29,147 nucleotides of DNA from a virus. Its lineage: Duplodnaviria; Caudoviricetes. Within the stretch, counting starts at the first letter, position 1. Every line of letters begins with the position of its first letter. Location of the stretch: the IMG/VR virus record IMGVR_UViG_3300032250_000078, positions 1 through 29,147 of that record; one strand, written 5' to 3'. Made by a program: the position numbers and the translations under genes. Positions 9,547 through 25,778 of the stretch are shown here, in pieces. The notes under the pieces are model-generated. The model searched no databases. It was not told the DNA's origin and saw nothing but the letters and a program-made list of their open reading frames with translations.

Positions 9547-9559
9547 ACTTTTATATTTT

Positions 9560-9591
9560 AAAAAAGCCCCTCCCAAATGAGAGAGGCTTTT
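9560..9591 (-). terminator. Intrinsic terminator after major capsid gene
   Basis: Minus strand AAAAGCCTCTCTCA-TT-TGGGAGGGGC-TTTTTT: GC-rich hairpin followed by a U tract. Confidence 0.85.
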
Positions 9592-9621
9592 CATTATCTA
9601 CAATAAACACCCACAACATTA

Positions 9622-10824
9622 TTATACGTTACCGAAATCAGCAAACAATGCAGACGCAGGCATCATCAAGTTCACATCTTCTAAACACTCAATTCTAGCA
9701 GTGATTAAATTCTTAGTGAAGTTGTCTTGGTCTTCCATTGAGAACTCTACAGTAATAGCTTCTGTCTCAACACGCTCAAGGTAATCTCTATCGATGATAA
9801 GAATCTTATCATCAGTTACCCATGAAGCTGGGATGATTGGAGTACCACTGATAGCTACATTACCATTGCTCATAGACAAGATACCACCCGATCCTTGATA
9901 GTAACCGTTAGTGTATAACAACTTGTTTAAACGAGCTAATTGATTATGGCTTACCAAAGCATAAGAAGCATTAAAGTTAGCTGACATTTGAGCAGCAATT
10001 GCATCAACGATAAACTTAACATCATCAGTCTCAGCAGATGCAGTTGAGCCAGTTGCAGCAGTACTAACTGTACTGAAGAAAGTAGCATTTTCAACTTTGT
10101 AGAAATCTCTTAACAACAATCTTGGTAAAGTTGTCTGCATGAATGGTAATTGCTTAGCCATCTGCTTAGAGAATCTTGCGAAACCTGCGATGTAATCTTC
10201 AACGATTTTGATTTCTGATAAATCGTAATCGATTTGACCTTTAGAAGCTCCTTCAGTCTGAACTGCGATAGCACCCTCAGAACCAGTCTCACGATATTGT
10301 ACATACAAACCAGTTCCACTGATTGCAGTAGGCATTAAATCACGGAAGTTAATCTTCTGAGATGGTAACAAAGCTTGTGTAGCTGCATAAGTTGCAACAC
10401 CATCACCAGTTAAGTTATTACCCAAAGTCATATTTCCAACAGCCTTCAATTCCATTCTGAATGGCTTGCCCTTCTTTACGTTCTGGATTTGGTCGAAGTT
10501 CTCTTCCAATCCTTCGCTAAACAATTGACCAAAAGACTTATTCTCCATCTTAGATGAAGTTGAAGACTTTACTCTTGTCTGTAACAAATCAAAGCCCTTC
10601 AAGATTGCAGCTTGCTCAGCTTTCAACTTGTTGAACTCATCAGTCATAGCTTTAACAGCCTCAGCTGAATCACTACCGTTACCAAATGCGTTGATTTTTT
10701 CATCAACCGCTGTTACTACTGATTTCAATTGATCAGCAATCTCAGACTTAGTTTTCTCAGATATTGAAGTTTCTAGCGTTGACTTCAATCCCTCTAATTC
10801 CGCCATTAATTCTTTCTTTTCCAT
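9622..10824 (-). CDS. Major capsid protein (HK97 fold, N-terminal coiled-coil delta domain)
   Basis: Coiled-coil N-terminus; EGASKGQID...IAGFARFSKQM...DNFTKNLITARIE motifs; follows the prohead protease. Confidence 0.95.
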   Translation of the reverse strand: MEKKELMAELEGLKSTLETSISEKTKSEIADQLKSVVTAVDEKINAFGNGSDSAEAVKAMTDEFNKLKAEQAAILKGFDLLQTRVKSSTSSKMENKSFGQLFSEGLEENFDQIQNVKKGKPFRMELKAVGNMTLGNNLTGDGVATYAATQALLPSQKINFRDLMPTAISGTGLYVQYRETGSEGAIAVQTEGASKGQIDYDLSEIKIVEDYIAGFARFSKQMAKQLPFMQTTLPRLLLRDFYKVENATFFSTVSTAATGSTASAETDDVKFIVDAIAAQMSANFNASYALVSHNQLARLNKLLYTNGYYQGSGGILSMSNGNVAISGTPIIPASWVTDDKILIIDRDYLERVETEAITVEFSMEDQDNFTKNLITARIECLEDVNLMMPASALFADFGNV

Positions 10825-15736: not shown

Positions 15737-15769
15737 CAAAGTTAAACATTTTTTTATAACGTCCACAAA
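15737..15769 (-). promoter_or_regulatory. Bacteroidota sigma-A-type promoter for packaging/late operon
   Basis: TTTG (15769-15766), 21-nt spacer, TAACTTTG (15744-15737), matching the -33/-7 consensus. Confidence 0.75.
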
Positions 15770-15789
15770 TAACGCTCAAATCCTTTGTG

Positions 15790-15797
15790 TACCTTTG
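15790..15797 (+). promoter_or_regulatory. -7 element (TACCTTTG) for the sole plus-strand gene
   Basis: Exact TAnnTTTG 9 nt before ATG 15807; no properly spaced -33 seen. Confidence 0.6.
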
Positions 15798-15806
15798 TTA
15801 CAGCCT

Positions 15807-16739
15807 ATGAAAACACTTTTTACCTTACTCATGCTGAGTTTCAGCCTGTGCATATATGCACAATGTATTGATATCTATGGTTCTAAAGTTGACTGTCCAA
15901 CTGAAGAAGATAGCTTAGTACTTTACAATAATGCTATAAAAGTAGTCCAGTTCTATGACAGCAATACAGAATATACCCTAAGCAATAGCATAGAATTACA
16001 ATCCATCAAACAGAAACGCGAGATATTTGAGCAACTTAAAGAAGCTCGTAGGATGTTTAATATCATCAGAAGAGAGGTTGCCAATCTTAGTGAAGCTGAG
16101 AAAAAGTTTACTGCAGGTAAACCAAAGAAAGGATATAAGGACATAGGATATAGTGATTACTATGCTGAAGTTGATGAGTACCGGTTCTACCAGCGCGAGC
16201 TAGAGAATCAGATAATAAATGCCAATGCTCAGATTCCAATTTATGACAACCGGATAGCTCCAATTCTGTTAAATACATATCAGAACATAGACACATCATC
16301 CATCTATTTTGGTGACCTGGTACAAATACCGCTTTACGTTCCTGTAGTGGTTAAGCCATTTGCTTTGCTTACTGGACCTGAACTGATGCTCAGAAATAAG
16401 GTTCTGAAGATACCTGCTCCTAAAGTTTACCCAGTTAGATCAATGGTAAAAAGAGATACCACACCTGAGCCAAATTATACGCAAAAGAATATAAAGGAGC
16501 AAAAGAACCCATTATTATATCCATCTGCATATAAATTACCAGTGTATGCTTACAACCAATATGGTTCTGCATCAGTAATAGGCTTTATGATTGGCCATAA
16601 ATTTAAAAAGTTAACCCATGAGGAATATGCTCAATATGCTGTTGCTCCGTTTGCACGCACTATACTGGCAGATAATTTACTTTTGGATAAACTCCTCAAA
16701 ATAAAGTTTGGAGCGTATTACTTTGGATTGTTCCAGTGA
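15807..16739 (+). CDS. Exported protein of unknown function (moron-like, 310 aa) with Sec signal peptide
   Basis: MKTLFTLLMLSFSLCIYA|QCIDIYGSKVDCP; long ORF filling the gap between terS and the replication module, with its own -7 element. Confidence 0.8.
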   Translation: MKTLFTLLMLSFSLCIYAQCIDIYGSKVDCPTEEDSLVLYNNAIKVVQFYDSNTEYTLSNSIELQSIKQKREIFEQLKEARRMFNIIRREVANLSEAEKKFTAGKPKKGYKDIGYSDYYAEVDEYRFYQRELENQIINANAQIPIYDNRIAPILLNTYQNIDTSSIYFGDLVQIPLYVPVVVKPFALLTGPELMLRNKVLKIPAPKVYPVRSMVKRDTTPEPNYTQKNIKEQKNPLLYPSAYKLPVYAYNQYGSASVIGFMIGHKFKKLTHEEYAQYAVAPFARTILADNLLLDKLLKIKFGAYYFGLFQ

Positions 16740-16974: not shown

Positions 16975-17152
16975 TTTGTCTATTTCTCTTTATATAATTA
17001 ATTAATTAAGATAAGTTCAATAAATTAATAAAAATAGGTTAGATACGTTAGTGATTTTGTAACTGATTGATACTCATAGCGTATTTCACTAACCTATTTT
17101 ATTAAAAATGCGTTAGTAGCTAATATAAATGCTCATTATTAGTTAGTGATTT
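16975..17152. other. Putative replication origin: AT-rich tract, inverted repeat and GTTAG repeats
   Basis: Mostly non-coding region after the primase-helicase; AAAATAGGTTAG (17031-17042)/CTAACCTATTTT (17089-17100) inverted repeat; GTTAGTGATTT twice; TAATTAATTAATTA tract. Confidence 0.5.
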
Positions 17153-19465: not shown

Positions 19466-19715
19466 GTTGTAGTTCTTTGAGTGATTTTGTGATAAATACG
19501 AAGAATCCTGCTTCTGTTAGTTGTTTGTGACGGTAGTGCTGAAGTTCAGAGACAACTCCTTTTTCAGACTTTACTTCTATAAATATGGTAACGCCAAGCT
19601 TGTGGATTTGTAGGTCAGGCCATCCATTCTTGTTAGTCTGGATAATCTTGACAACAAGCCATCCTTCCTTTTCAAGCCAATGGATGATTTGGGATTGGAT
19701 TTGTGATTCACGCAT
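19404..19715 (-). CDS. VRR-NUC domain nuclease (Holliday-junction resolvase-like)
   Basis: ESQIQ...GWPDL...FIEVK...SELQ motifs. Confidence 0.9.
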   Translation of the reverse strand: MRESQIQSQIIHWLEKEGWLVVKIIQTNKNGWPDLQIHKLGVTIFIEVKSEKGVVSELQHYRHKQLTEAGFFVFITKSLKELQHEFITISEKLRQKRLIGNLN

Positions 19716-19953: not shown

Positions 19954-20560
19954 GTAGTGTAGTTTTTAATTTGTTGTTTAATTTGATTAATTGTTGTAAT
20001 TCTAGTGGGTATTTAGTAACGGTATTGCGATGCATATTCTCACGCTTGGTTATCATCTGCAAATTATCAATATTTAAATTGTATTTATTTTTGTCTTTAA
20101 ATATAATGATATTGCCTTTAGGTATTGGACCATTGTTCTGCTCCCAGACAAGCCTGTGCTTAAGAACATATTTACCTTTGCTTATTCTGATGTAGATGTA
20201 ACCATCTTTAGGATCTAATCTTTCATGACCGTCATATTTCATATTATGAGGTTCATTCCCTTTCTTAAACATAGACACCTTGACCATCTCATACATTTCT
20301 TTGGACATTTTTTGTCCTTTATTATAAGTATTATGACCAGCCTTAAATCTTGATGCAGCTCCTAAAACTTTTAGCTTTTCAGCTTCACGCTCAAGAGATA
20401 TTTTTATAAATTCAGGTGACTTTCTTACTTTCAAATTGATGGCCGCCTGGTATACTGCTCGTGGTGATCTGTTGATGGCATCGGCAATGTCTTTGGTATA
20501 TCTGTCAGAGTAATTTAGCTTAACGTACTCTAGTTCTTCTTTAGTCCATTTTCTTCTCAT
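19937..20560 (-). CDS. HNH endonuclease-family protein with N-terminal HTH-like region
   Basis: WTKEE...IA..INRS N-terminus; FKKGNEPHN; KHRLVWEQNNGPIPKG...FKDKNKYN...NL...ENMHRN. Confidence 0.85.
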   Translation of the reverse strand: MRRKWTKEELEYVKLNYSDRYTKDIADAINRSPRAVYQAAINLKVRKSPEFIKISLEREAEKLKVLGAASRFKAGHNTYNKGQKMSKEMYEMVKVSMFKKGNEPHNMKYDGHERLDPKDGYIYIRISKGKYVLKHRLVWEQNNGPIPKGNIIIFKDKNKYNLNIDNLQMITKRENMHRNTVTKYPLELQQLIKLNNKLKTTLHEKQN

Positions 20561-21803: not shown

Positions 21804-21852
21804 GAGTATAGTTTAAAAATGTTTAATTATTAGTACTATTGGTACCATAATT

Positions 21853-22044: not shown

Positions 22045-22067
22045 GTTATGTAGTTTTTAATTGTTAG

Positions 22068-22158
22068 TATCCAGTAAGGGAGTCGAACCCTTATCCCTCA
22101 GAACTGAATCTGAGACGTTACCCTAGTCGATATTCATTGTCGATTACGCCAACTGGAT
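22068..22158 (-). tRNA. Atypical tRNA / tRNA-like RNA (27-nt D-loop, 6-nt anticodon loop; identity undetermined)
   Basis: Acceptor ATCCAGT/ACTGGAT, D stem GCGT/ACGT, anticodon stem TCAGA/TCTGA, T arm AAGGG-TTCGACT-CCCTT, discriminator A followed by CTA. Confidence 0.8.
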
Positions 22159-22195
22159 GACCTGGTGAATGATAGCAGATCTTACGGTATGCTTG

Positions 22196-22541: not shown

Positions 22542-22634
22542 TATTGTAGTTTTAAAAGTATAGAATCTTGTTCTGTCATTGGTACCAATCTCCAACAAGT
22601 ACTATCATAATAAAAGGTAATAGTCTTTGGATAG

Positions 22635-24528: not shown

Positions 24529-24834
24529 TTAATAGGCTTTATCAAAGTAAATGTGACCGATGCTGATATAGTCATACAAATCATCAGAGACTTCATCATA
24601 AGTCAGATAATCAAAGTACTCATCAAAGGTCATGTAATGTCCTTTAGATTGATATTGCCCTGTGCTGATGTCATGAGTCTCGAAGTAAAACTTATCAAGT
24701 CTTTTTAAGTACCTCTCAAACTTGTAATCTTGAATGACAATAGTGTTGGATTTGGTGTATCTGTTTTCAGATATCTCGACTATGATGAAGTCATCATCAC
24801 GCTTCCAGTTTAGAATTTCGAATAGTTTTTTCAT
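24529..24834 (-). CDS. Hypothetical acidic/aromatic early protein
   Basis: ORF with AAACTAC leader motif. Confidence 0.7.
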   Translation of the reverse strand: MKKLFEILNWKRDDDFIIVEISENRYTKSNTIVIQDYKFERYLKRLDKFYFETHDISTGQYQSKGHYMTFDEYFDYLTYDEVSDDLYDYISIGHIYFDKAY

Positions 24835-24979
24835 GTCTTTTAATGTAGTTTATTAGTTTTTGTTTTGTAATGTCAATACCGCCAATTCTATCAATACTTT
24901 GCTTTTCTAGATAAATCTGAATTGCAATTTTTCGTAGTTCAGGAGCAACTGGCTTTCTCCCTCGTTTTTCTGTTACCAT
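24797..24979 (-). CDS. Small putative DNA-binding protein
   Basis: KRGRKP basic motif followed by a beta/helix pattern; second gene of the early operon. Confidence 0.6.
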   Translation of the reverse strand: MVTEKRGRKPVAPELRKIAIQIYLEKQSIDRIGGIDITKQKLINYIKRHEKTIRNSKLEA

Positions 24980-25056: not shown

Positions 25057-25075
25057 TTTTAGTAGTTTTATAAAG

Positions 25076-25106
25076 CAAATCTATGGTGTCCTATTTTATT
25101 TACAAA
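25076..25106 (-). promoter_or_regulatory. Early promoter (Bacteroidota -33/-7 consensus)
   Basis: TTTG (25106-25103), 19-nt spacer, TAGATTTG (25083-25076), AT-rich upstream tract. Confidence 0.8.
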
Positions 25107-25134
25107 ATTTTTTTATAATTATTTAAAAAATAAG

Positions 25135-25143
25135 TTATCCACA
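25135..25143 (+). promoter_or_regulatory. Perfect DnaA box TTATCCACA
   Basis: Exact consensus 9-mer in the intergenic region; single copy, function unproven. Confidence 0.4.
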
Positions 25144-25144
25144 C

Positions 25145-25172
25145 AAAAAAGCCCGATGTGGAAACACCAGGC
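25145..25172 (-). terminator. Intrinsic terminator ending the late/lysis transcript
   Basis: GCCTGGTGT-TTCC-ACATCGGGC-TTTTTT; the two G-U pairs work only on the minus strand. Confidence 0.85.
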
Positions 25173-25211
25173 TAAAAACTACTGTATAAATCGTCGTACA
25201 CACAAAAAATT

Positions 25212-25778
25212 CTATACGAGACAAAGATAAAACCTTTTGCCATACAAAGCAATAAGCTCTGCTTTATCTGTGCCATTAATTATCTTCCTGGCATTTACCC
25301 AATCCTCACGCTGATCATTGAAGTACCTAGCTAAATTAACGCCAGTAAATAGGCCTTGAGTCATGCCCTTAACCAGTATATCTATAGATACATCCATTCT
25401 AAGTAAAAGCTCAGGATTATTAAGCAGGTCAAGCTTTAATAACTTGCCAAATTTCTCATAATTATCGTACCAGGTAAGCTGGACTAGTCCTCTGCCATAA
25501 TAAAGCTTGTCAGGAAATTGATAAGGCTTTAGATTTACTTTTATCTTCCTGCCGTATGGCTTGCGGATGCCTTGCCCTACTTCTTCAATTGGTTCAAATG
25601 ATCTGCTAGTCTCATGATATACTGTTGCCAAGATGTATGCTATCCATCTCTTATCGGTAATAAATTTATTACTTTCACAGTACTCCACAATAGCCAGCAT
25701 TCCCCTCAATTGATGAGGAGTAACCTTATTATAAAGGTTGTAACTTTTTAGCCTATTATGGAACGCTATTTCATTCAT
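25212..25778 (-). CDS. Endolysin, glycoside hydrolase family 19
   Basis: AYILATVYHET, YYGRGLVQLTWYDNY, ARKIINGTDKA motifs. Confidence 0.92.
   Translation of the reverse strand: MNEIAFHNRLKSYNLYNKVTPHQLRGMLAIVEYCESNKFITDKRWIAYILATVYHETSRSFEPIEEVGQGIRKPYGRKIKVNLKPYQFPDKLYYGRGLVQLTWYDNYEKFGKLLKLDLLNNPELLLRMDVSIDILVKGMTQGLFTGVNLARYFNDQREDWVNARKIINGTDKAELIALYGKRFYLCLV

Follow-up and report, generated by a model that had tools for sequence, protein, structure and literature searches.

A candidate small RNA after a phage endolysin gene, with a seed complementary to leaders of the phage's own early genes

The window, that is, the whole stretch of DNA analysed here, is a complete phage record of 29,147 bases with a 123-nt terminal overlap. 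Its recognisable genes all lie on the minus strand, where an early block coding for an exonuclease, a helicase, an HNH nuclease and a primase precedes the genes for packaging, head and tail, and the late set ends with a gene for a GH19 endolysin (Table 1). Among the 48 ORFs scanned, no match to an integrase or repressor family was found. The leaders are A/C-rich and lack Shine-Dalgarno sequences, and the early promoter agrees with the consensus quoted in PMC7366714; from these two traits we infer a host in the Bacteroidota. In this phylum start regions are A-rich and unstructured, and an A-rich window upstream of the AUG tunes initiation in Flavobacterium (PMC6847099). An annotated collection of cultured phages held no close relative, the best matches being 49% for the exonuclease and 43% for the helicase. 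Queries with the region and with the hairpin described below against phages and plasmids gave chance-level matches only, and a search of a genome collection returned two loci, both unrelated to the element.

Table 1. Features of the window that bear on the candidate small RNA and its predicted targets.
Feature	Position	Strand	Basis or remark
GH19 endolysin, last late gene	25212..25778	-	PHROG 181, E 3e-31; Pfam PF00182 above cut-off
Candidate internal host-sigma promoter, lysin 3' end	25222..25252	-	TTG (25252-25250), N20, TATCTTTG (25229-25222)
Predicted ~74-nt small RNA	25144..25217	-	Fold; 5' end inferred from fopS-10 promoter spacing
Seed GUAGUUUUUA	25173..25182	-	Predicted mostly unpaired, mean 0.67; adjoins terminator hairpin
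Terminator hairpin, family loop UGU-UUCY-ACA	25151..25172	-	Fold z -3.95
U tract (U6) of intrinsic terminator	25145..25150	-	T run invariant in 9/9 aligned sequences
Early promoter TTTG-N19-TAGATTTG	25076..25106	-	Sequence; box at corresponding position in most relatives
Predicted target site, leader of first early gene (start 25056), 9 bp	25061..25069	-	G-U counted; reachable in cis too in read-through RNA
Predicted target site, leader of start 24834, 7 bp	24845..24851	-	G-U counted
Predicted target site, leader of start 22541, 8 bp	22546..22553	-	G-U counted; extensions match seed in three relatives
Predicted target site, leader of start 22044, 10 bp	22050..22059	-	Exact complement of seed
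Predicted weak site, helicase leader, 7 nt	21808..21814	-	6 Watson-Crick pairs + 1 G-U; not conserved
Predicted target site, leader of start 19953, 10 bp	19959..19968	-	Exact complement of seed
Predicted target site, primase leader, 9 nt	19469..19477	-	8 Watson-Crick pairs + 1 G-U

Several further features of the window deserve description. The second early gene (24797-24979, minus strand) codes for a conserved 60-aa protein that shows an RGRKP motif as well as a strand-like segment and a GG turn. Searches of Pfam, PHROG and PDB with this protein were blank, but it has 174 homologues, and it is a candidate DNA-binding regulator with a weak CcdA-like lead. Between two early genes (~22063-22165, minus strand) lies a tRNA-like element whose 3' end adjoins the leader of start 22044. 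It was called neither by ARAGORN nor by Rfam, and its fold z is -1.3; the acceptor stem and T arm are kept in six relatives, and the anticodon stem covaries with a loop of variable size. Possibly it is a decoy tRNA or a processing signal. A long AT-rich inverted repeat directly after the primase stop (16990-17119, minus strand) is a possible replication origin. A gap of ~970 bases (15750-16717) separates the last early gene from the probable small terminase gene; its minus strand has short ORFs only, its plus strand a 314-codon ORF without a family, and it may hold the late promoter or the packaging site. The capsid gene (9622-10824, minus strand) is mosaic: it is 92-96% identical to its counterparts in clade C and 63% to that of the clade-mate G002, while the flanking genes follow G001/G002, which suggests a shared gene pool.

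The terminator lies 39 nt past the endolysin stop on the same strand, and the endolysin mRNA has it in common with the candidate small RNA. A first-pass annotation had described a seed, a stem with a UUCC loop and a run of six U residues at this place, and both sequence and coordinates were as claimed. Of 10 lysin relatives with diverged flanks, 7 retain the word GTAGTTT in front of the hairpin. In the predicted fold of the RNA a weak 5' helix forms beside the terminator hairpin. An Rfam search of the whole window gave nothing at E <= 1, a search limited to 25080-25280 gave 16 matches, every one far below its cut-off, and ARAGORN found no gene in the window. Four other explanations for the stretch were rejected. 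A replication origin was discarded because the perfect DnaA box at 25136-25144 occurs only in L001, L002/L012 and L031; an antisense ORF beginning at the seed, because neither the window nor L001 has an ATG after it; a bidirectional terminator, because the plus strand lacks a U tract; and an invertible promoter, because no recombinase was found among the 48 ORFs scanned. The DnaA box (plus strand) adjoins an AT-rich stretch, and an 11-nt direct repeat (25140-25150 and 25199-25209) flanks the seed and hairpin.

The word TAAAAACTAC has three exact copies in the window: one each at 22059-22050 and 19968-19959 on the minus strand, and the seed, where it is inverted. All four coding-strand copies of AAAACTAC stand 12-13 nt upstream of early start codons, all five of AAACTAC fall within early leaders, and the seed is the sole opposite-strand copy of the motif. 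The same confinement to early leaders was seen in two relatives (5/5 and 3/3). For the shorter word AAAACTA there is no enrichment over the whole genome (11 copies against an expected 9.4), and the signal therefore resides in the position of the copies and not in their number. The 10-nt complements before starts 22044 and 19953, which had been noted earlier, are exact. Pairing over 7-9 nt with five further leaders had also been proposed; this holds if G-U pairs are counted. One comparison gave the primase and helicase leaders 6 Watson-Crick pairs each. The helicase, named as a target, has a weak site without conservation, which ranks 16 of 39 start regions and turns up in two of the six close relatives compared, counting the window. 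The primase site is kept in all four close relatives that have the gene, again with the window included. The complementary sites lie 5-17 nt upstream of the early AUGs.

When the 39 start regions were ranked by their seed duplexes, early genes took the first six places (rank test, p 5e-4), and when the whole predicted RNA was cofolded with each region, seven early regions ranked first (p 7e-4). Pairing with the seed is short and dominated by A-U pairs, at -7 to -10 kcal/mol. When the 42-nt linker was shuffled 20,000 times, a 10-mer complementary to two of 14 early leaders arose in 0.56% of the shuffles, an 8-mer for four early leaders in 1.4%, and a 7-mer for five in 3.0%.

The first-pass annotation had named covariation of seed and leader motif among related genomes as the decisive comparison. 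The loop pattern resolved 42 distinct lysin 3' ends at loci with sufficient upstream DNA, and 10 such loci remained unparsed. The parsed ends consist of the stop, a G/U-rich linker, a hairpin with a YRU-DUYY-AYR top and a U tract, and at several of them the linker-hairpin unit is duplicated in tandem. Whole records were taken for 22 relatives, and the covariation test comprised 20 genomes including the window, G012, G017 and G026 being excluded because no lysin terminator was listed for them. The 11 lineages were grouped by eye and start codons were called by script; leaders with more than 4 G in 25 nt were dropped, as were ORFs of less than 80 aa without a homologue. Each linker was then scored against each leader set by the longest perfect complement. 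Over the 11 lineages the own-versus-foreign residual was 0.76 for early leaders (permutation p 2e-5 to 4e-5) and 0.06 for late leaders (p 0.18). No lineage signal was obtained with coding windows (p 0.09-0.12), with the -55..-30 window (p 0.66) or with reversed or same-sense linkers. After genes less than 450 nt from the terminator had been dropped, the residual was 0.755 over 171 targets (p 4e-5), and with duplex energies instead of match length the p value was 0.0008-0.0013. Match enrichment was highest at -10..-1, where it was 3-fold, and matches of at least 9 nt were found in 33 of 205 early versus 10 of 366 late leaders. A parallel-complement control reached p 0.048, due to one CA-repeat lineage; with the repeat lineage removed, the antiparallel signal remained (p 1.6e-4), and with the four strongest lineages left out p was 0.018. 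As judged from these genome comparisons, the covariation of linker and leaders exceeds the controls run, and the expectation set beforehand was borne out.

The words that serve as tags are specific to each lineage. CA repeats match over 12-13 nt in L044, the helicase leader over 13 nt in L035, and the adjacent leader over 13 nt in L094 and 15 nt in L018; in G015/G016 a CA tag stands before two late genes as well as before early genes. In the seed-bearing clade the exact core AAACTAC is found in 23 of 68 distinct early leaders, although orthologues among these are not independent, against 1/14, 3/113 and 2/90 in other groups. The leader of the 22541 orthologue matches the seed over 11 nt in L011, 14 nt in L006 and 10 nt in L051, an extension that the window lacks. 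Variants with one mismatch in the seed clade are wobble-compatible in 8 cases and pair-breaking in 2, which is weak evidence because transitions are common. In the sister clade L014/L057 the seed is replaced, 3 of 4 orthologous leaders lack CUAC, and one orthologous leader now matches the new linker over 9 nt. That relatives might keep the leader motif without the seed, which had been put forward as an argument against an antisense role, is partly the case: the 22044 orthologue of L014/L057 retains AAAACTAC although the seed is gone, while most of the other leaders lost the motif core. The residual of this lineage (B) is negative (-0.53) and that of lineage J is about zero. The linkers of G014-G016 carry the same seed word at the stop codon, yet they match 0-1 early leaders.

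A second case, in the 3' UTR of the capsid gene, had been proposed alongside the lysin element. In the window this UTR (9547-9621, minus strand) is G/U-rich, but its hairpin differs and is without a UUCY loop; G/U-rich linkers are not confined to hairpins of the UUCY type. By plain match length it matches the leader of start 6554 and its orthologue over 9-12 nt in the window and G002 (9 nt in the window), and in 4 of 5 clade C genomes the capsid 3' UTR matches an early leader over 11-15 nt. These match lengths fit the proposal; capsid 3' UTRs of the other genomes compared gave nothing notable against their own leaders.

Whether the RNA comes from the late transcript is a separate matter. The lysin 3' end holds a candidate promoter that fits the consensus taken from PMC7366714, one of 21 coding-strand TAnnTTTG boxes in the window, where such boxes are common, and among the 5 of these with an upstream TTG. 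L048 and L002 keep the box, and in L003 and L004 it spans the stop codon; L006, L009, L058/L061 and the large clade C lack it. In the wider family of elements described below, a TAnnTTTG box lies 35-130 nt upstream in 22 of 106 elements, compared with 7.5 +- 2.8 for shuffled sequence and with 6 when a more distant window is taken. The fopS-10 promoter spacing that was used to place the 5' end derives from an oligonucleotide in supplementary file 4 of PMC11697453. We put about even odds on a ~74-nt primary transcript from this putative promoter, and a host-consensus promoter could yield the RNA from the start of infection. Derivation from the late mRNA, as first claimed, is therefore one possibility and not a finding; in other phages the unit is found behind early genes, tRNA and tmRNA as well.

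The hairpin belongs to a wider set. The exact 20-base pattern occurs in 109 viral stretches (83 distinct contexts), after lysins, early genes, other genes, tRNA and tmRNA, and an 18-base pattern occurs once per record in all 33 records checked. In G035, G036, G046 and G048 the hairpin is on the strand opposite the structural genes. Rfam searches of 20 of the 109 loci gave only tmRNA and tRNA above their cut-offs. In 115 non-redundant elements, a set selected by the hairpin pattern, stem pairs covary and, so far as that pattern allows variation, most loops read UUCU. Their linkers contain 43% T and 19% G, and TTTCAT, antisense to AUG-AAA, occurs in 30 of them versus 3.9 expected; linkers of 36 other terminators are balanced (T 0.34, A 0.33). 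Own-genome matching was also analysed for 21 additional groups with 26 records; all genes were pooled, and self-overlaps as well as loci inspected earlier were taken out. Own start regions matched better by the top three matches (p 0.002), by the share at 9 nt or more (p 0.0098) and by the mean (p 0.032); coding and parallel controls in these groups were not significant, and about half of the groups had no own-genome effect. A 22-nt match in G064 was discarded as a target, being the element's own opposite strand. G049 has three elements, and one of these is complementary over 9-11 nt to the AUG regions of three small genes close by. L163, L167, L310, L316 and G060:5076 share a linker word before the hairpin, TCATATGGCAAGCAATC or something close to it, which in some phages follows tmRNA or tRNA-like sequence; it may be a host sRNA seed carried by phages.

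The closest known counterparts are the FopS (RF04319) and GibS RNAs of B. thetaiotaomicron. These likewise join a single-stranded G/U-rich 5' part to an intrinsic terminator (PMC11697453, PMC7366714). They have a housekeeping-sigma promoter, for which the window offers a candidate motif, and pair at start regions, as is predicted here, in a phylum that does not use Shine-Dalgarno sequences; the 65-70 nt of FopS is similar to the ~74 nt predicted for the phage RNA. FopS-10 blocks translation by pairing beside the start codon, FopS-14 is a 3'UTR-derived member, and a FopS sequence has been noted in a phage (PMC11697453). Validated Bacteroides seeds are long, comprising the first 30-50 nt in GibS (PMC7366714). 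FopS is bound by the RRM protein RbpB, and its R1/R1' seed carries an anti-start-codon box. Unlike FopS, the window seed has no anti-AUG box (there is no TTCAT in the linker) and is replaced from lineage to lineage; the UUCY loop differs from the fopS-10 terminator, and the predicted targets are phage early genes, whereas those described for FopS are host glycan-uptake mRNAs. FopS is a validated RNA and the phage RNA a prediction from sequence. With the RF04319 covariance model (cut-off 56 bits) the window had no match at E <= 10, and none of five other records exceeded the cut-off, the best being the G064 element (15.3 bits, E 0.13); 1 of 14 control genomes did so. By this comparison the window element appears to work like FopS/GibS and is not a FopS member. 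The first-pass annotation knew of no description of a 3'-UTR antisense circuit for such phages; the architecture as such has a precedent in the phylum in FopS/GibS (PMC11697453). The hairpin family has no Rfam model. A literature search, with most subscription journals outside its scope, found no description of the UUCY-loop family and no lytic Bacteroidota phage RNA directed against its own early leaders.

Likeness to two other systems is looser. The c4 RNA of phages P1 and P7 also acts against the phage's own mRNAs, pairing near ribosome-binding sites via short variable sequences on a conserved scaffold. It differs by three stem-loops, excision by RNase P, seeds in loops and a role in lysogeny (PMC5320573); the seed proposed here is a linker before a single stable terminator hairpin, in a phage that gave no integrase or repressor family match, and there was no Rfam C4 match in the window or in 25080-25280. 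GcvB of enterobacteria resembles the candidate in that one sRNA silences many mRNAs by covering A/C-rich enhancing motifs upstream of the start (PMC3879156). The candidate, like 3'UTR-derived sRNAs in general, has its terminator in common with the upstream mRNA and a candidate start site in the coding 3' end. GcvB is Hfq-dependent, has a G/U-rich seed and is a host regulator of amino-acid uptake; the window had no Rfam match or sequence relation to it, and the likeness is one of mechanism only. Bacteroides has no obvious Hfq or ProQ (PMC7366714), and the usual chaperone route is therefore not expected.

Four other explanations have to be weighed against a trans-acting RNA. The element could be an ordinary terminator behind an unstructured G/U-rich linker, its complementarity following from A/C-rich leaders and from a repeat style that each lineage has on both strands. 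The T/G bias of the family linkers, the A-rich unstructured start regions of the phylum (PMC6847099), the CA-repeat leaders of G015/G016, which precede late and early genes alike, and the parallel-complement control all fit this explanation, and many foreign pairings reach 8 nt too. We nevertheless hold it to be unlikely: composition-keeping shuffles were beaten, the late leaders, coding windows and -55..-30 window carry no lineage signal, the other terminators have balanced linkers, and the antiparallel signal survives removal of the repeat lineage. We judge it a little less probable still that the RNA is FopS-like and acts mainly on host mRNAs, the match to phage leaders being a by-product of a copied host start-site style. 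In its favour are the abundance of TTTCAT, which resembles the FopS seed, the spread of the hairpin to tRNA and tmRNA genes, and the further groups in which an own-genome excess was not seen. Against it, the site in the seed-bearing clade stands before early genes only and before no late gene, and seeds and leaders have changed in step even though the capsid protein points to a common gene pool.

Action in cis only, in which read-through late RNA folds the seed onto the first early leader and early translation is not restarted, receives slightly less weight again. The minimum-energy fold of the read-through RNA does pair the seed with 25061-25069, and the adjacent leader is often the best match, as in L094 and L018. 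However, the lineage signal is unchanged when adjacent genes are dropped, and both perfect 10-nt sites are 3 and 5 kb away; occlusion in cis can in any case coexist with action in trans. It is very improbable that the motif is a protein-binding site in dsDNA (or mRNA), for instance for the 24797-24979 protein, with the inverted copy as one more site. Inverted copies do flank the terminator and the early promoter, the putative regulator is conserved and has a weak lead to CcdA (0.86), and the strand-like segment at its centre varies from clade to clade. But coding-strand copies keep a fixed distance from the AUG and only one is near a promoter box, other lineages replace the motif by unrelated words that are mirrored in the linker each time, and the one-mismatch variants, weakly, lean towards preserved pairing.

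Taken with the confinement of the tag to early leaders, the covariation makes it likely that the stretch acts as a small RNA. We give a probability of roughly 0.6 to the reading that the DNA from the endolysin stop to the early promoter encodes a trans-acting, anti-leader sRNA that lowers translation of the phage's own early genes. Such an RNA would arise at a host-sigma promoter within the lysin 3' end, as a primary transcript of ~74 nt, or would be the 3' portion of the late lysis mRNA, or both. The conserved UUCY-loop hairpin would stabilise it or dock a host protein, and the seed-plus-terminator RNA would pair in trans with the start regions of about six early genes. Bacteroidota ribosomes lack the Shine-Dalgarno handle that most sRNAs exploit; pairing would instead block initiation over the A-rich upstream window that they use in its place. 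As the RNA accumulated, it would become a dose-dependent brake on translation of the early genes and the primase. That this brake is a strictly late-triggered switch, one version of the model, is doubtful.

To our knowledge, how small lytic phages without a recognisable repressor turn down their early genes is largely an open question. If the proposed trans-acting RNA is real, the phage writes a private tag into its leaders and one 3'-end RNA controls the set, with seed and tag co-evolving. Only tentatively, the UUCY hairpin may be the constant handle of widespread, re-programmable anti-start-site RNAs in Bacteroidota phages, in which each lineage rewrites seed and early leaders together; the 3' ends of lysin and capsid genes would then make up a circuit of RNA alone that sets when early and replication genes are shut down. 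The lineage pairs are ready-made compensatory pairs for a reporter test, the conserved loop is a possible bait for the missing RNA chaperone of the Bacteroidota, and the element would offer a compact scaffold for gene silencing in this phylum.
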